NCBI GenBank assembly: GCA_002840365.1
Contig: PHAO01000001.1
Location: 239,242-303,241, forward strand
DNA from: Candidatus Dojkabacteria bacterium HGW-Dojkabacteria-1
Lineage (GTDB): Bacteria > Patescibacteriota > Dojkabacteria > SC72
DNA: 64,000 nt
Direction: 5' to 3'
Both the position numbers and the translations under genes were made by a program. Under the pieces are notes generated by a model. That model had not been told where the DNA came from and did no database searches. It was given only the letters and a program-made list of their open reading frames with translations. Below, piece after piece: positions 32,967 to 55,362 of this stretch; within the stretch, counting starts at the first letter, position 1, and every line of letters begins with the position of its first letter.

Positions 32967-33761
32967 TTGTATTTAATGGATAGATTTGAAGAATTAAGAA
33001 AGGCTCAAGAAGGGACATTAGAGCAACCTAATACCACACCTGAGCAAGAGGCAGTTGTTTCTCCACAACCTTCTGTAAGTATGGAAGAGAGTGTTATTTC
33101 AACTATGTCTAATGAAGAGAAAAGAGCAAAGACTTTGAATATGATTCTTTTGGTTATGGTTTTTGCAATGATTGGTTTGTTTGCATATCTTTTCTTTACT
33201 GATAGGTTACTACTTGGAGTAGAGAATCCTTTCTCAAAGCAGGTTGTAGAAGAGGAGGAAGATATAGAAGAAGAGAAAGATGAAGAAGAAGGGTCTGCTG
33301 TACAAATGAAAGAGTATGTAAATACAGAGTTTGGAGTTAAATTTGAATATCCTGAGTCATGGGTTGTACAGGAGGATGTTGTAGAAGGTTCCTTAGGTTT
33401 GGAAATAAAGGAGAGGTCAGCTAATCCTGATTTTGTATTTGTATATAGTTTACCTACTGCTTCTGGACCAGAAATTTGCTATTTCTCTGATACTGAAAAT
33501 CCAGAAGAGATAGTGATTGGTACTTTGTATGACAATTTCTTTTCAATCAATACAGATTCTTCTCTTAGAAGAACTCTTTGGGTAAGTCAGGGAGTTTCAG
33601 AATACAAGGTATGTAAGAAGGATACAAATGGTAATTATACAGATTGGATACAAGCAGGGTATGTATCATACAAAGTTAATATGAACAGACCTGATGCACA
33701 GAGTATGTTAAAGATTATGGATGATATCTTACTATCATTCGAATATACAGGGAATATTTAG
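32967..33761 (+). CDS. hypothetical membrane-anchored protein with an acidic linker
   Basis: Single TM helix (LNMILLVMVFAMIGLFAYLFF) then an E-rich segment and a globular domain. Confidence 0.45.
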   Translation: MYLMDRFEELRKAQEGTLEQPNTTPEQEAVVSPQPSVSMEESVISTMSNEEKRAKTLNMILLVMVFAMIGLFAYLFFTDRLLLGVENPFSKQVVEEEEDIEEEKDEEEGSAVQMKEYVNTEFGVKFEYPESWVVQEDVVEGSLGLEIKERSANPDFVFVYSLPTASGPEICYFSDTENPEEIVIGTLYDNFFSINTDSSLRRTLWVSQGVSEYKVCKKDTNGNYTDWIQAGYVSYKVNMNRPDAQSMLKIMDDILLSFEYTGNI

Positions 33762-33782
33762 ATAATTGTTATATATGACTTG

Positions 33783-33823
33783 GCTAAGGAGACACGGTGA
33801 TGACACATGTGTGCCTCCTTAGC
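33783..33823. terminator. hairpin (GCTAAGGAG ... CTCCTTAGC, 9-bp stem, 23-nt loop) between convergent genes; candidate bidirectional terminator and boundary of the GC-rich gene
   Basis: Inverted repeat read directly from the sequence. Confidence 0.45.
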
Positions 33824-33835
33824 TAGTCAGTGAAT

Positions 33836-34618
33836 TTAGTCCTCCCAGGAATCTATATGAGTCCATTTTGGTCTTGCATGAATTGCTATATCCTTCCCGG
33901 TGTACTGGTCATGGATAGAAATCATGCAACAAGGAGCATCTTTTACTCTTCGCCAATACTCGCCCTGTATTCCAGTAATCTCGCTTATGAAGCGAATCAT
34001 ATCCTCAGGATCGCTTGTAGCGAAATCCCAATGAATACCTGGTACCCAGTCGTTTGGCCAGAGCTGATGCTCAACCCAGAAGATTCCGTTTGGTGATTGC
34101 CGCGTTTGAACGGGTATGTACCATCGTTGATGGTCTGGTGCAGACTTTGAAATCGCAACAGAATCATACCTGTCCAAAGTCTTCCCTATCTCTTCTTGGC
34201 AATCTTGCTCTGACTGGTGCTTGAACCCTACGTGGTGGAAGCGTACTTCATAGGATATGGACCACATCAGTAGAGCAGCCAGCATTAGGTCAACGTTATC
34301 GTTTTCCCACGCTGAGGCAGCCACAATGTAGTGATCCTCGCGGAGCCCACCTTTCCATTCGCAGCCATCGTCAAAATTCGGAATCGGAGTTCTTGAGATT
34401 CCTTGACGAGAGCCCTTGGCAAGAAGGGTGTATGCTTTCCATGCTGCGTACATGGCAGGGGAGTTATCATCTCCAATGCCACCAGCCCATTTGGAAAGTT
34501 GTGACTCTACACCATACCCAGTATGATCAGCTTCAATCATATGGATATAGGTGGGAGTCTGTGATGCGCCGAGTAGTAAATCGGCAAGGTAGAAGGATCT
34601 TTCAAAAAGCGTTTGCAT
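33836..34618 (-). CDS. GC-rich (foreign-looking) gene; possible amidase_2 / PGRP-like N-acetylmuramoyl-L-alanine amidase, start refined to MQTLFERS
   Basis: GC content by eye well above neighbours (roughly mid-40s % versus about 33%); RBS AAGGAG 7 nt upstream of the chosen ATG; weak resemblance to amidase_2 motifs (HYIVA ... FHHVGFKHQSEQDC). Confidence 0.4.
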   Translation of the reverse strand: MQTLFERSFYLADLLLGASQTPTYIHMIEADHTGYGVESQLSKWAGGIGDDNSPAMYAAWKAYTLLAKGSRQGISRTPIPNFDDGCEWKGGLREDHYIVAASAWENDNVDLMLAALLMWSISYEVRFHHVGFKHQSEQDCQEEIGKTLDRYDSVAISKSAPDHQRWYIPVQTRQSPNGIFWVEHQLWPNDWVPGIHWDFATSDPEDMIRFISEITGIQGEYWRRVKDAPCCMISIHDQYTGKDIAIHARPKWTHIDSWED

Positions 34619-34711
34619 TGCATATCTCCTTTTTGGAATGTTTTTCACTGACTTTTAAAGAACCCCTTATTATACTATGGGCTCTATATAAATTCTAGTT
34701 AGGAGAGGAGT

Positions 34712-35113
34712 TTAAAGATTTATTAATTTGAGTAGGTACGGCATAAAGATTATCAATCCTAGGATTACAGAAAGTATCGCACTAACTAATACTGCACCTG
34801 CACTAACATCTTTTGCATATTTAATATTTACTCTGTACTCTTCAGAAACAGTGTCACATACTGCCTCTATTACACTGTTAAAAGCTTCTGATATAAGGAC
34901 TAATGCTATTAAAAATCCTACAGCTATCCAATCACTATGTGAGATTTTAAGTAGATATGCAAAGACTATTACTAATACAGCAACTACTAATTGAATTCTG
35001 AAATTTCTTTCATTCTTTACTATCGATATTACACCTTCAATAGCGTGTTTTTGGCTTTTTAATATACTTTGTGGTGTTCTAAATGTACTACCCATATAGC
35101 TCCCATTATACAT
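34712..35113 (-). CDS. dgkA: diacylglycerol kinase / undecaprenol kinase (DgkA family)
   Basis: Three TM helices and the SEAFNSVIEAVCD motif characteristic of DgkA. Confidence 0.8.
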   Translation of the reverse strand: MYNGSYMGSTFRTPQSILKSQKHAIEGVISIVKNERNFRIQLVVAVLVIVFAYLLKISHSDWIAVGFLIALVLISEAFNSVIEAVCDTVSEEYRVNIKYAKDVSAGAVLVSAILSVILGLIIFMPYLLKLINL

Positions 35114-37282: not shown

Positions 37283-37882
37283 TTAAATCTCTTTAATTAA
37301 CTCTACAATATCTTTTTCTATTTCACTAGGTTCTACATTGGGAGCATATCTTTTGTATGGTTTTCCATCTTTATCTATTAAGAATTTTGTAAAATTCCAT
37401 TTGATAGAGTTACCCATTAAACCATCAGGTAGTTCTCCTTTGAGATATGTAAATACAGGGTGTTCATTCTTTCCATTAACATCTATTTTTTCTGAGAGAA
37501 GGAATGTTACCCCAAAGTTTAATTTACATACCTCTACCATATCTTCATTTGATTCTGGTTCTTGATTAAGAAATTGATTAGAAGGAAATCCAATTACTTC
37601 TAATCCTTTTCCTGCATATTCTTTATTTAGTCTCTCTAAATCTTTAAACTGATATGAGAAACCACACTGTGTAGCAGTGTTTACAATTAATACAACTTTT
37701 CCTTTGTAATCACTCATCTTTATCTCATCACCCATTGTGTTCTTAAATGTTAAGTCGTAAAAATTCATATCTGTTTTTTTACTTAAGTTATTTGAATATG
37801 CCCTTACTCCTCCTATTAGTAAAATGCTAAGTAAGAGGAAGAGAGAAATTATTAATATTGTTTTTTTCTTTTTTGATTCCAT
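37283..37882 (-). CDS. glutathione peroxidase-family thiol peroxidase with N-terminal signal/TM anchor
   Basis: VNTATQCGFS and FPSNQFLNQEP match the GPx signatures (VNVASxCG, FPCNQFxxQEP) with Cys/Ser variation. Confidence 0.8.
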   Translation of the reverse strand: MESKKKKTILIISLFLLLSILLIGGVRAYSNNLSKKTDMNFYDLTFKNTMGDEIKMSDYKGKVVLIVNTATQCGFSYQFKDLERLNKEYAGKGLEVIGFPSNQFLNQEPESNEDMVEVCKLNFGVTFLLSEKIDVNGKNEHPVFTYLKGELPDGLMGNSIKWNFTKFLIDKDGKPYKRYAPNVEPSEIEKDIVELIKEI

Positions 37883-42930: not shown

Positions 42931-43446
42931 TTATACTTTTTCATTCCCAATTATCTGATATATATCATTCCGAATTTTCCCAATATTGTTTACATCTGTA
43001 CTTTGTATCCTAAGTAGAGGCATATTGGCTTCTTGAAAGATTCTTTCTACTAAATTATCTCTATCTCTCCTATCATTTCTTGAGTGGGAGATATCATCTA
43101 ATTCTATTGCTAAAAGGGGTGAAAGATATACTTTGTCACAGATTACATAGTCTATAGATTTTCTTTGTATATGGCTTAGAGCCCCTTTCCAGTCTTGTCC
43201 TATTACTTTGTTATCTAATATTGAATCTAAATGTATCTGTGGAAATATGTAATATCGGTTATCTAACAGTTGGTTTAAGGTCTTAAAGAGATCGGATTCC
43301 GCTTTTGTTAATAGGTACTTCTTTCTAGTATATTGATATATTTTTTTGGTTTTATACCTATTTTTCTTTTTTATTAATGATGAAACTACAGAGAGTAATG
43401 CAAAGATAGGGATGAGGATTAGGATGTATATTATGAAGGTATCCAT
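42931..43446 (-). CDS. membrane-anchored DUF2726 (NERD-like) domain protein
   Basis: N-terminal TM; KSIDYVICDK ... AIELDDISH ... RDRDNLVERIF resembles the DUF2726 pattern. Confidence 0.5.
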   Translation of the reverse strand: MDTFIIYILILIPIFALLSVVSSLIKKKNRYKTKKIYQYTRKKYLLTKAESDLFKTLNQLLDNRYYIFPQIHLDSILDNKVIGQDWKGALSHIQRKSIDYVICDKVYLSPLLAIELDDISHSRNDRRDRDNLVERIFQEANMPLLRIQSTDVNNIGKIRNDIYQIIGNEKV

Positions 43447-53359: not shown

Positions 53360-53851
53360 ATGGGAGACAAAAAAGATTTACCAGCATTGATAAAGGAATG
53401 GTTTGAGCCAGATACATCTCCTACAGAAGAGATTGTGGTTGAGGTACAAGATGTAATCTTGGAAGAATTAGAGTATGAGAGTGTAAGTCAGGATGTATCG
53501 GAAGAATTACAAATGGTTGGAATAGATTCGGTAGTAGAGGAGACGGTTGGGAACGATCCTTCTGCTTTAGATTTTCTTAAGGAGAAATTTCCTTCTCTTT
53601 TGGGTAATTGTAATTCTTGGAAAGATGTATTTAAGGAGGCAGCTAGAATATCTAGAGAGGTACACAAAGAATACTTCTTTATACAGGTATTCGCATCAGG
53701 CGTCATCCTAACATATATGGCTACAAATCCATTCCTTAAATCTTTAGGTCCTGTATTAGCATCTGTGGGTTACAGAAACAGTAGTGTAATACAAAGGGGA
53801 GTATCAGAAGAGGATGTTAGAAAAGTTCTTGGAGGTAGTTCTAAAAAGTAG
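53360..53851 (+). CDS. hypothetical protein
   Basis: 163-aa ORF, acidic N-terminal half. Confidence 0.35.
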   Translation: MGDKKDLPALIKEWFEPDTSPTEEIVVEVQDVILEELEYESVSQDVSEELQMVGIDSVVEETVGNDPSALDFLKEKFPSLLGNCNSWKDVFKEAARISREVHKEYFFIQVFASGVILTYMATNPFLKSLGPVLASVGYRNSSVIQRGVSEEDVRKVLGGSSKK

Positions 53852-53878
53852 AAGAATTTGTTAGAATATCGACATCAA

Positions 53879-53964
53879 GCCGAGGTGGTGGAATTGGCAG
53901 ACACGCTACCTTGAGGTGGTAGTGGGAGTAAAATCCTGTGCAGGTTCAAGTCCTGTTCTCGGCA
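53879..53964 (+). tRNA. tRNA-Leu (anticodon GAG), long variable arm
   Basis: GCCGAGGTGGTGGAATTGGCAGACACGCTACCTTGAGGTGGTAG ... GGTTCAAGTCC ... TCTCGGCA; nearly identical 5' half to E. coli tRNA-Leu(GAG). Confidence 0.9.
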
Positions 53965-53995
53965 GAGTATTTATGGTGTATAATACACACGTTTA

Positions 53996-54072
53996 GGGCG
54001 ATTAGCTCAGCTGGCTAGAGCATCTCGTTTACACCGAGAGGGTCGTAGGTTCGAATCCTACATCGCCCACCA
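53996..54072 (+). tRNA. tRNA-Val (anticodon TAC), CCA encoded
   Basis: GGGCGAT-TA-GCTCAGCTGGCTAGAGC-A-TCTCG-TTTACAC-CGAGA ... GTAGGTTCGAATCCTAC-ATCGCCC-ACCA. Confidence 0.9.
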
Positions 54073-54226
54073 TTCCATAGGGTGTTATTTTGTTTAACTC
54101 ATCTCTCAATATTCCTGCTTATATTACATCGAGTAGTAAAATTTCCTCAGTTACTGAAATATTTCTTGTTAATGACAACTATAAGTTATATAATCCAATA
54201 TCTCAAACCGAAAGGAGGTGAGGTAA

Positions 54227-54322
54227 ATGTTTGCAGTGAAGTATTTCACTCAGGTCGAGTCAACTGATGCTAACGCAACTAGCACAGTAGACAAATCGAG
54301 CGGGCAGACTGACTTCGATTAG
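54227..54322 (+). CDS. unannotated 31-aa peptide MFAVKYFTQVESTDANATSTVDKSSGQTDFD; candidate graspetide (microviridin-like RiPP) precursor
   Basis: RBS AAAGGAGG 9 nt upstream; leader FAVKYF resembles the microviridin PFFARFL recognition motif; core rich in Thr/Ser donors and Asp/Glu/Lys acceptors; 104 nt upstream of an ATP-grasp gene; GC-rich. Confidence 0.55.
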   Translation: MFAVKYFTQVESTDANATSTVDKSSGQTDFD

Positions 54323-54426
54323 TCGTCACCGGCAAGCAAGAAGGGGATGTGGAGATCCACAATGCATTATTATGGCCGACACCTCTCTACATCCCCCTAG
54401 CTCTTTCAAGCATTTAAGGAGAAATC

Positions 54427-55362
54427 ATGAGCGCAATACTAGTAGTAACCACATTGCCAGACCCCCACGTAGAAATGGTAAAAAAGCATCTCAGTTCTGA
54501 TGCGAATGTAGTCATATTTGATCCAAAGACTCTGGCGTTGTCCGGTGGCTTTACGCTTTCAGACGCAGGGCTTTTATCCACTCTTGATGGGGTTAATCCG
54601 ACCTCAATTTGGTATCGGAAGCCAAAGTATGTTTCTGATGCTGAGCTAGAGAAAATGGGAATCCCGAAAGATTTAATCTCTGCAATTTCATCTCTACATG
54701 AGGAGGGATTCTCACTAATTAGCGAGGCATATCCTGAAAGTCTTTGGGTATCAAAACCAACTGCAATCAAAAGTGCTTCAAACAAGCTTTTGCAAACTTT
54801 GATTGCAAAGAAGATTGGATTCCGTGTTCCGGAGACAATCTTTTCGACGGATCCGGTGGCAATAGAGGGCTTACGAAGCAGGGTGGGAGACATTGTGATT
54901 AAGCCATTGGGAAGGCCGTTTGCAACTGTAAATGGTATACCTTCCTGGTTTTTTGCTACTGTTATCCCTTCCTCTCAGACAATGGATTATGAAGGTCTAG
55001 GGTTAACTCCTATGATTTTTCAGCAGTTAATCCATAAGCTGTTTGACTTAAGAGTAACTATCATCGGTAACAAGATATTTGGATGTAAAATAGTTTCAGA
55101 TCAAGTTGATTGGCGAACTGTACAGTCAAAACCTGATACTCTATATACACCCTTCGAACTTGATAGAAATATCATCGAGAAATGTTTACTCATGAATCAG
55201 CAACTTGGTCTGAACTTCGGGGCCTACGACTTCGCTTATTCCAAGGAGGGGGAATATGTTTTTTTAGAGATAAATCCTAACGGACAGTGGGGATTTGTTG
55301 AAGACAAAACGGGATTACCCTTATCCAAGACAATGGCGGAATTACTGACCGGTTCTCTTTAA
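54427..55362 (+). CDS. ATP-grasp ligase, candidate graspetide (omega-ester/amide) macrocyclase
   Basis: 311 aa, the size of RiPP ATP-grasp maturases; EYVFLEINPNGQWGF ATP-grasp C-terminal motif; GC-rich relative to the host; RBS AAGGAG. Confidence 0.65.
   Translation: MSAILVVTTLPDPHVEMVKKHLSSDANVVIFDPKTLALSGGFTLSDAGLLSTLDGVNPTSIWYRKPKYVSDAELEKMGIPKDLISAISSLHEEGFSLISEAYPESLWVSKPTAIKSASNKLLQTLIAKKIGFRVPETIFSTDPVAIEGLRSRVGDIVIKPLGRPFATVNGIPSWFFATVIPSSQTMDYEGLGLTPMIFQQLIHKLFDLRVTIIGNKIFGCKIVSDQVDWRTVQSKPDTLYTPFELDRNIIEKCLLMNQQLGLNFGAYDFAYSKEGEYVFLEINPNGQWGFVEDKTGLPLSKTMAELLTGSL

Follow-up and report, generated by a model that had tools for sequence, protein, structure and literature searches.

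A single gene for a 260-amino-acid (aa) protein was analyzed in a 64,000-nucleotide (nt) stretch of DNA, termed the window, from Candidatus Dojkabacteria bacterium HGW-Dojkabacteria-1 (contig PHAO01000001.1, positions 239,242 to 303,241). The coding sequence occupies positions 33836 to 34618 of the minus strand, with an ATG at 34616 to 34618 and a TAA at 33836 to 33838, and forms a GC-rich, codon-atypical segment. On the reading that we favor, with a probability of roughly 0.6, this open reading frame (ORF) encodes a DUF336-VOC enzyme, has been exchanged as a coding unit between conserved untranslated ends, and is expressed from an mRNA whose ends pair with each other next to a conserved 3′ hairpin. 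The resulting single-gene expression unit, extending from about 33776 to 34677 on the minus strand, would be self-contained, with a promoter belonging to this gene, a short leader, the coding sequence and the 3′ hairpin. A previous sequence-only reading of this DNA had described one foreign gene bounded by a hairpin and proposed a function for it; the finding is real and goes beyond "one foreign gene," and the function proposed earlier is wrong.

The two untranslated ends of the gene contain complementary boxes. The box in the 5′ leader, AGTCAGTGAA (34644 to 34653, minus strand), has the core GTCAGTG and is perfectly complementary to its partner, a 3′ box, TTCACTGACT (33825 to 33834, minus strand), with the core CACTGAC, which starts 1 nt past the stop codon. 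Directly 5′ of the leader box is a conserved element, TCTTTAAAA (34653 to 34661, minus strand), which was present once per locus and always upstream of a gene of the family of the 260-aa protein. A −10-like promoter element, TAGTATAAT (34669 to 34677, minus strand), is located 7 nt upstream of TCTTTAAAA within the conserved sequence CCCATAGTATAAT, a spacing that would place the 5′ box approximately 10 to 17 nt into the transcript. The upstream block, consisting of CYATAGTATAAT, approximately 7 nt, TCTTTAAAA and GTCAGTG, was detected in the window and at 11 of 12 other loci, and its 3′ half was retained in relatives with only 21 to 26% protein identity. The 5′ box was the only match to this element in the window. 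For TAGTATAAT, three occurrences were observed in the window versus an expectation of 2.5, and its use as a general promoter motif was rejected on this basis. A Shine-Dalgarno sequence, AAAGGAGA (34625 to 34632, minus strand), was read from the sequence with its 3′ end 6 nt upstream of the ATG, and homologues likewise have GGAGG sequences ahead of the start. The identical protein in the public data, hypothetical protein PKN02676.1 of the same organism, is annotated as 270 aa with a start at a GTG (34646 to 34648, minus strand) that falls within GTCAGTG, the conserved 5′ box; a more likely start is the ATG at 34616 to 34618, as it has the Shine-Dalgarno sequence and fits the N termini of the homologues.

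Changes in the two boxes were paired between loci. Reverse complementation of the 3′ box gives GTCAGTG, and alterations on one side were matched on the other (GTCGGTG with CACCGAC and ATCAGTG with CACTGAT). Lineage-specific extensions of the boxes were also complementary (GGA/TCC, GGTAA/TTACC and GCGTTTA/TAAACGC), such that the longest perfect complement between the 5′ and 3′ ends was 8 to 13 nt at all 15 loci. In a gap-free alignment of 14 loci, 8 of the 14 pairs had changed on both sides (22 cells), a level attained by none of 500 shuffles, and 79% of positions were paired in the true box register versus 22 to 37% in slid controls. Folding of the full transcripts (905 to 981 nt) with ViennaRNA recovered this helix as part of the minimum-energy structure for all 14 of 14 loci, at mean pair probabilities of 0.84 to 0.99; the value for the 914-nt window transcript was 0.96. 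Distant members of the family retained a complement at the same two positions in unrelated sequence, as seen for TTTAACCTT with AAGGTTAAA at locus L009 and for 11 of 12 pairs at L028. Complementarity was lost through substitutions in both boxes (GTAGGTG versus CAACGAC) in a frameshifted Saccharibacteria copy, L008 (10001 to 10821 of CAZULJ010000002.1, a metagenome-assembled genome), which has a frameshift near the C terminus and an internal deletion and retains the hairpin. This is consistent with a pseudogene freed from constraint, and the disruption could also be an assembly error. As far as comparison of sequences can establish, these analyses showed a conserved and covarying architecture of 5′ box, 3′ box and hairpin that is specific to this family.

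Further variation in the leader was observed at some loci. A longer leader, with 85 to 109 nt between the 5′ box and the start codon and an extra hairpin (exemplified by UAUCUUACAAA...UUUGUAAGAUA at L020), was present at L011, L014, L017, L020 and L026, and the extra hairpin was absent from the window, L001, L002, L007 and L012. A metagenome contig, Ga0209800_10000275 (L024, 2399 to 2414), fits the gapped pattern of the 5′ element; a scan of metagenome contigs with this pattern missed it, so the empty result of that scan is not taken as absence of the element.

The 3′ box is adjoined by a conserved hairpin (33776 to 33824, minus strand; main stem arms at 33783 to 33795 and 33811 to 33823), the stem of which is followed by a GTCA (33776 to 33779, minus strand) repeating part of the 5′ box. 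Its location between convergent stop codons, as noted in the sequence-only reading, was borne out, the stop of the plus-strand gene being at 33761 and that of the 260-aa gene at 33836, and the hairpin proved to be a conserved element tied to the family of the latter gene. Folding of the window hairpin gave approximately −29 to −30 kcal/mol with z scores of −4.3 and −5.2, and none of 200 shuffles was as stable. When the region after the stop codon was folded for five other loci, the same hairpin was obtained every time (z scores of −5.7 to −7.5). The layout was shared by 13 loci and comprised a CAC[T/C]GA[C/T] box after the stop, a stem of 13 to 17 bp and a partial complementary copy, [G/A]TCA. 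Analysis of 11 distinct copies with RNAalifold indicated 16 pairs, 10 of them with compensatory double changes and none broken in the main stem. Among 14 copies, all 15 of the non-Watson-Crick stem pairs were G-U on the sense strand, which are A-C mismatches on the other strand, and a covariance model gave the window site a minus-strand score of 73.9 bits as against 23.6 bits for the plus strand, with no other copy in the 64 kb. The G-U pairs and the minus-strand score argue that the hairpin would act on the sense transcript, as part of a conserved mRNA architecture. From the loci compared, the hairpin is specific to the gene family of the 260-aa protein. A generic genomic repeat was ruled out, as the 5′ box and the hairpin model each matched only the 260-aa gene in the window, and a search of positions 33650 to 34850 against Rfam yielded no match at an E value of ≤10.

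The apex of the hairpin (33796 to 33810, minus strand) was conserved in sequence in the window and at L001, L002, L007, L011, L012, L014 and L017. Within it, the perfect palindrome GACAC-AUAU-GUGUC precedes another GUGUC, which allows either of two pairings that exclude each other. The L019, L020 and L026 alleles share another conserved apex, AGCGUUUUCAUAC. The covariance model detected two more copies of the hairpin, one after a paralogue at L019 and one after a 170-aa ORF at L026. The former gene (L019, 9898 to 10710) encodes a divergent 247-aa paralogue without the His-His motif (hhalign probability, 98%) and has the same promoter, boxes and hairpin. The latter (L026, 1153 to 1731) has the same architecture of promoter, box and hairpin and a faint resemblance to the family (E value of 0.017); its boxes covary (TAATCAGTAGAA with TTCTACTGATTA), having changed in concert to ATCAGTA and TACTGAT. 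There is, hence, a hint from this 170-aa ORF of other ORF families using the same ends.

Comparison of alleles between related genomes localized the divergence to the ORF. For L001 and L007, two related Dojkabacteria contigs, the flanking genes exhibited 82 to 93% protein identity, a synonymous divergence (dS) of 0.58 to 0.69 and 70 to 76% identity at four-fold sites. The ORF itself exhibited 53% protein identity, a saturated proportion of synonymous differences (pS of 0.78) and 31% four-fold identity. Sliding nucleotide identity fell from approximately 0.9 to 0.4 to 0.7 exactly over the ORF and then rose to 0.93 to 0.98 in the 3′ hairpin. Alignments of the two contigs placed the breakpoints at the start codon and in the last 15 to 40 nt of the ORF, and the leader from the box to the ATG was identical. 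A similar pattern was observed between L011 and L014, with 51% protein identity for the ORF and a downstream flank that was 85% identical. Ratios of nonsynonymous to synonymous divergence (dN/dS) among alleles were 0.09 to 0.29, indicating purifying rather than diversifying selection on the protein; positive diversifying selection was ruled out as the source of the ORF divergence by these values together with the saturated dS. These alignments showed a pattern of ORF-limited allele replacement at the sister loci, in which the untranslated ends were conserved and the coding part between them was exchanged. Most simply, recombination moved old, divergent alleles into younger conserved flanks. 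The copy in the window probably results from the same replacement process, and its GC anomaly would then reflect an old divergent allele placed by recombination between the conserved ends.

Pairing of the mRNA ends may control stability or translation of the message, by analogy with hbs of Bacillus subtilis, in which a 14-bp interaction joining the 5′ untranslated region (UTR) to the 3′ UTR modulates cleavage by RNase Y (PMC5737220). The icaR gene of Staphylococcus aureus provides another bacterial mRNA whose 5′ UTR base pairs with its 3′ UTR (PMC3868564). The predicted helix of 8 to 13 bp resembles these cases in that it joins the leader to the region just past the stop codon of a monocistronic mRNA, beside a 3′ terminal hairpin. 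Unlike in hbs and icaR, the pairing is conserved with covariation across approximately 17 loci, down to 21 to 26% protein identity, accompanies a horizontally exchanged ORF and is predicted from sequence; unlike in the icaR mechanism, the Shine-Dalgarno sequence is not involved. The same conserved ends may also supply homology for swapping of the ORF and thereby serve as recombination anchors. A bolder proposal, which we consider possible but doubtful, is that promoter, 5′ box, exchangeable ORF, 3′ box and hairpin constitute a portable module, the ends of which are needed for expression and double as homology arms by which Patescibacteria swap deeply divergent alleles of a DUF336-VOC enzyme that may confer resistance or immunity to small-molecule toxins of variable kind. 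If true, this would amount to cassette exchange without an integrase, maintained by an RNA-level constraint.

The hairpin could instead be a mere bidirectional terminator for the convergent gene pair, with the complementarity between the 5′ and 3′ ends being functionless. Its position between convergent stops and its near-equal folding on both strands of the window are as expected for such a terminator, and canonical terminators with U-tracts occupy the position of the hairpin in the distant members L009 and L028. Complements of at least 10 nt also arise by chance, being present for 3 of 55 genes in the window. The control scan, of the upstream 130 nt against the first 40 nt after the stop, gave 10- to 11-nt perfect complements for the genes at 37283 to 37882 and 42931 to 43446 (both on the minus strand), which may be AT-rich chance matches or further cases of end pairing. 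Against this explanation, the window hairpin is not followed by a T-run on either strand, and a scan for the intrinsic-terminator consensus made no call at this site. The hairpin trails genes of this family both ahead of convergent and ahead of co-directional neighbors, its sequence is approximately 90% conserved across alleles that are approximately 50% identical in protein, and the box beside it covaries with the 5′ leader at eight positions. A simple terminator is, on balance, unlikely.

A DNA-level ALTERNATIVES reading was considered equally improbable. On this view, the boxes and hairpin are DNA recombination sites, resembling either integron attC sites or the ends of an invertible cassette, and the ORF is swapped by site-specific recombination. 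The layout does recall a folded attC site, with a box, a hairpin and a partial complementary copy of the box at one end and the full complementary box at the 5′ end. The helix between the 5′ and 3′ boxes is purely Watson-Crick without any G-U pair, the ORF behaves as a swappable cassette, and one family member is located in an element with integrase, restriction-modification and Abi genes. As in integron cassettes, a single ORF of atypical composition forms an exchangeable unit, and short complementary core boxes lie on either side of an imperfect hairpin after it. The consensus of attC sites is RYYYAAC for R″ and GTTRRRY for R′, with extrahelical bases in the stem. The boxes CACTGAC and GTCAGTG are unlike this consensus and the stems are continuous, with no extrahelical or bulged bases; no integrase was detected within ±10 kb in the window, and no cassette arrays were found. 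The breakpoints are at the edges of the ORF (the start codon and the last approximately 15 to 40 nt) rather than at the boxes, as also indicated by the identical leader from box to ATG in L001 and L007. Orientation with respect to the promoter, which is the gene's own, is conserved and lies outside the repeats, was the same at all 15 of 15 loci, and the non-Watson-Crick pairs of the hairpin are all G-U on the sense strand. On the same grounds, we rejected an integron attC cassette, a segment that inverts and a transposon bounded by terminal inverted repeats.

The composition of the ORF was compared with that of the window's remaining ORFs of ≥100 aa (n = 55). The 260-aa ORF ranked first in GC content among the window ORFs, with approximate values of 0.474 to 0.476 for GC and 0.456 to 0.458 for GC at third codon positions (GC3), versus 0.334 ± 0.026 and 0.249 ± 0.033 for the comparison set (z scores of 5.4 and 6.2, respectively). 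The claim that this minus-strand gene is far more GC-rich than its surroundings was, therefore, upheld. For a description of the protein as rich in Trp, His and Cys, the first two parts held, with 5.0% versus 1.0% Trp and 4.6% versus 1.3% His relative to the window, and the third was weak, as the 1.5% versus 0.8% for Cys corresponds to only four residues. Using the codon preferences of the genome itself, the expected values for this protein were 0.398 for GC and 0.268 for GC3, indicating that amino acid composition accounts for only part of the excess, and 7 of 12 Arg codons were CGN as compared to approximately 9% in the rest of the window. The composition is, hence, foreign-looking beyond any amino acid effect. 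The GC3 value exceeded that of the neighbors by a z score of at least 2 at 9 of 11 loci (range, 2.1 to 9.3) and, among close alleles, spanned from the host level of 0.25 (L012) up to 0.54, a spread that argues against a uniform compositional constraint.

These data bear on whether the gene is a long-term vertical resident whose GC excess derives from amino acid composition and from selection on codons or mRNA. The neighborhood is shared with a related genome, the upstream prokaryotic diacylglycerol kinase (DAGK) gene having 75% aa identity between the window and L001 and the convergent downstream gene being homologous, yet the 260-aa protein is only 56% identical to the L001 copy. Amino acid composition alone raises the expected GC content to 0.398, and a constraint common to the family could explain why its GC content exceeds that of the host at most loci. 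However, GC3 is far above expectation, CGN codons for Arg are almost absent elsewhere in the window, close alleles range down to the host level of GC3, and the saturated synonymous sites of the ORF beside flanks with a dS of approximately 0.6 at the sister loci exclude vertical descent at a single mutation rate. We give continuous vertical residence little credence. Lateral acquisition, as put forward in the sequence-only reading, is supported, in the form of exchange, by the foreign composition and the comparative evidence; the picture of a single recent acquisition needs adjusting, as the gene occupies the same neighborhood in the related genome and the coding sequence was swapped between conserved ends. 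The donor is unsampled, and the best relatives are just 51 to 58% identical.

The 260-aa protein belongs to a rare and unannotated family, the few named members of which are mostly Patescibacteria. Searches of Pfam, NCBIfam, PHROGs, PADLOC and the PDB sequences detected no match at an E value of ≤10. An indexed search of 5.8 billion proteins recovered only five relatives (37 to 55% identity), and a HMMER pass over 1.84 billion representatives with a profile of these relatives identified 122 members at an E value of ≤1e−3, 90 of them at ≤1e−10. Nearly all members are 250 to 290 aa in length. Named members were from three Dojkabacteria, Saccharibacteria, the "Patescibacteria group" and one metagenome-assembled genome labeled Pseudomonadales, and most members carried no name. 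Comparison of 80 family members with Pfam produced only scattered single chance matches, with no consistent family and no amidase. Searches of PDB sequences with the single protein, a six-sequence profile and a 24-sequence profile of the C-terminal domain yielded only chance matches to HetR (E values of 0.7 to 1.2). Neither a relative of the protein nor the 5′ element was found in viral contigs.

Structure prediction indicated a fusion of two known folds. An AlphaFold2 model had a mean predicted local distance difference test score (pLDDT) of 78.8 when built from six sequences and of 97.5 when built from 80 family sequences, the latter with a predicted template modeling score of 0.93. In this model, residues 1 to 122 (34253 to 34618, minus strand) form an N-terminal domain with an alpha-beta2-alpha-beta3-alpha, GlcG/DUF336-like fold, and residues 125 to 250 (33869 to 34246, minus strand) form a C-terminal domain with two beta-alpha-beta-beta-beta modules and a VOC/glyoxalase fold. 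The order of secondary structures assigned by DSSP for residues 126 to 249, E-H-E-E-E twice, corresponds to the paired modules. The top Foldseek matches were methylmalonyl-CoA epimerases (MMCE), with an E value of 5.7e−6 and a probability of 1.0 over approximately 140 columns; the model resembles solved VOC members, and its N-terminal domain is superposable on solved DUF336/GlcG members. The predicted architecture is, hence, an N-terminal GlcG/DUF336-like ligand-binding domain followed by a C-terminal VOC domain of the glyoxalase/MMCE type. At the sequence level, the N-terminal profile aligned with a GlcG profile in hhalign with an E value of 0.009 over 58 columns, which is weak but in register, and the C-terminal profile gave a misaligned match to GloA of Escherichia coli (E value of 0.12). 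No relation was detected when the N- and C-terminal domains were compared with each other, ruling out the former as a degenerate VOC duplication.

Conserved residues of both domains are located at positions of potential functional significance. In the N-terminal domain, K61, S102 and D110 are each retained in 85 to 86% of the 80 family members and were aligned by hhalign with a Lys, Ser and Asp of GlcG. The pocket residues are of the type seen in EfgA, whose ligand residues K57, S114 and D121 have been implicated in formaldehyde binding (PMC8153426). In the C-terminal domain, H128, H129, G131, R165, E183, H196, D198, P229 and R249 are 95 to 98% conserved. Three of these (H129, E183 and H196; 96 to 97% conserved) are located in beta1 and beta4, the strands that open and close module 1, and in beta1′, which opens module 2, respectively; metal ligands occupy these positions in glyoxalase I and MMCE. 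The fourth ligand position lacks a Glu, and the invariant R249 sits nearby. The VOC domain may bind a divalent metal through H129, E183 and H196. Most likely, the protein would use this metal to convert or detoxify a small compound, either a reactive carbonyl or a xenobiotic, and its DUF336-like domain would bind the ligand or a cofactor. The predicted role is, hence, that of a metal-dependent enzyme handling small molecules or aldehydes, and the protein appears to be cytoplasmic; no signal peptide or transmembrane segment was noticed on inspection by eye, without a prediction tool.

The family differs from its presumed relatives in several respects. In comparison to the VOC superfamily (methylmalonyl-CoA epimerase, glyoxalase I, HPPD/hydroxymandelate synthase and extradiol dioxygenases), there was no sequence-profile similarity to Pfam VOC models, PDB sequences or GloA, the Glu of the last strand that provides the fourth ligand is replaced, an invariant Arg being located nearby, and the domain is fused to a DUF336-like domain. 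In comparison to the DUF336/GlcG/"Haem_degrading" family (PF03928), which includes EfgA, HbpS, the C-terminal domain of PduO, NahX and OrfY, the Pfam model was not matched, and the profile-profile comparison reached an E value of only 0.009. To our knowledge, DUF336 members occur as separate proteins or, in PduO, joined to an adenosyltransferase, and not with a VOC domain, and a full-text literature search found no mention of a DUF336-VOC fusion.

Separate DUF336 genes such as nahX may serve an accessory role in catechol meta-cleavage operons, and an alternative biochemistry for the protein is that of an Fe(II)-dependent dioxygenase of the extradiol or HPPD type with the DUF336-like domain as an accessory, like nahX. 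In the 260-aa protein, the Glu is supplied by the first module, whereas it is supplied by the second in dioxygenases; Foldseek places MMCE first, and there are no aromatic-pathway genes nearby in the window. Patescibacteria are generally described as fermentative, which also counts against a dioxygenase, and we assign this alternative only a slim chance. Far less probable still is a laterally acquired peptidoglycan amidase of the amidase_2/PGRP type acting in host attack or cell separation, as proposed in the sequence-only reading: the motifs HYIVA and FHHVGFKHQSEQDC are indeed present, and together with the His-rich composition and foreign-looking GC they make for a short resemblance, but neither the database searches nor the 80 family members produced an amidase match, the high-confidence model fits DUF336 and VOC folds with no amidase or PGRP among the top 50 to 60 listed structure matches, no export signal was noticed by eye, and FHHVGF, the motif on which that reading drew, is the first beta-strand of a VOC module, carrying two nearly invariant histidines. 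The amidase reading was rejected on these grounds, and the role in host attack or cell separation falls together with it.

Several observations weigh against the reading of a DUF336-VOC enzyme exchanged between paired mRNA ends. The start of transcription was deduced from the spacing of the −10-like element, and in L028 the box may lie at or before this start. The helix between the 5′ and 3′ ends has no G-U pair and would equally fit a DNA-level constraint. A 10-nt complement alone is not rare in an AT-rich window, so the case for pairing rests on conservation and covariation, and the 14 to 15 loci behind the covariation are phylogenetically related. In the window, the hairpin lacks a U-tract, and its folding is about as good on one strand as on the other. 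Replacement of the window's own allele was extrapolated from the sister loci and from codon usage, the comparison having covered no close relative with a different allele at the exact window locus. For the protein, there was no significant sequence-level link to the VOC or DUF336 families, both assignments resting on predicted structure, and the metal ligands were deduced from strand positions. Across 11 genomic contexts, the gene had no conserved operon partner to point to a substrate.

The gene was a stand-alone unit in all 11 of these contexts. Recurrent but loosely linked neighbors included DAGK (window, L001 and L009), zf_Tbcl_2, DUF1801 and NUDIX genes. One context contained MarR, two ABC exporters and a DNA_alkylation protein, and another contained an MFS transporter and a Peptidase_S66, giving some contexts a flavor of resistance. 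The convergent neighbor in the window (32967 to 33761, plus strand) encodes 264 aa that include a membrane helix at the N terminus and an acidic linker; the protein gave no more than a subthreshold match to PsbP_2 (E value of 0.0014, 19 bits versus a cutoff of 27) and is 33% identical to the homologous gene at the same position in L001. In the same genome, approximately 9 to 10 kb beyond the DAGK side, L006 (1 to 1700) encodes a Type ISP restriction-modification enzyme (N6_Mtase, Eco57I and Type_ISP_C) accompanied by DUF5677 and DUF2726 genes, and these look like a small defense cluster in the same variable neighborhood. The second most GC-rich ORF of the window (54427 to 55362, plus strand; 311 aa; GC of 0.416 and GC3 of 0.385) is located in a region, 53800 to 55000, with 41 to 44% GC. 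It has no match in Pfam and is followed by a strong hairpin without either of the 5′ and 3′ boxes, and a motif in its C terminus (FGAYDFAY...VFLEINPNGQWGF) looks ATP-grasp-like.

These findings leave basic concepts unchanged. A family with no sequence match in Pfam, NCBIfam or PDB is, on the predicted structure, a fusion of two known folds, DUF336 and VOC. We know of no other link between these domains than gene neighborhood, for example, that of nahX with nahH, and the fusion provides a Rosetta-stone hint that DUF336 domains may work directly with VOC metal centers. Only a few bacterial cases of long-range UTR pairing are known, each from a single species, and pairing of 5′ and 3′ ends with covariation over deep divergence would be an unusually well-supported comparative example. 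The sister loci present a clean case of apparent ORF-limited allele replacement in ultra-small episymbiotic bacteria, with boundaries at the start and stop codons, a case relevant to the way in which reduced genomes gain and renew their accessory functions.

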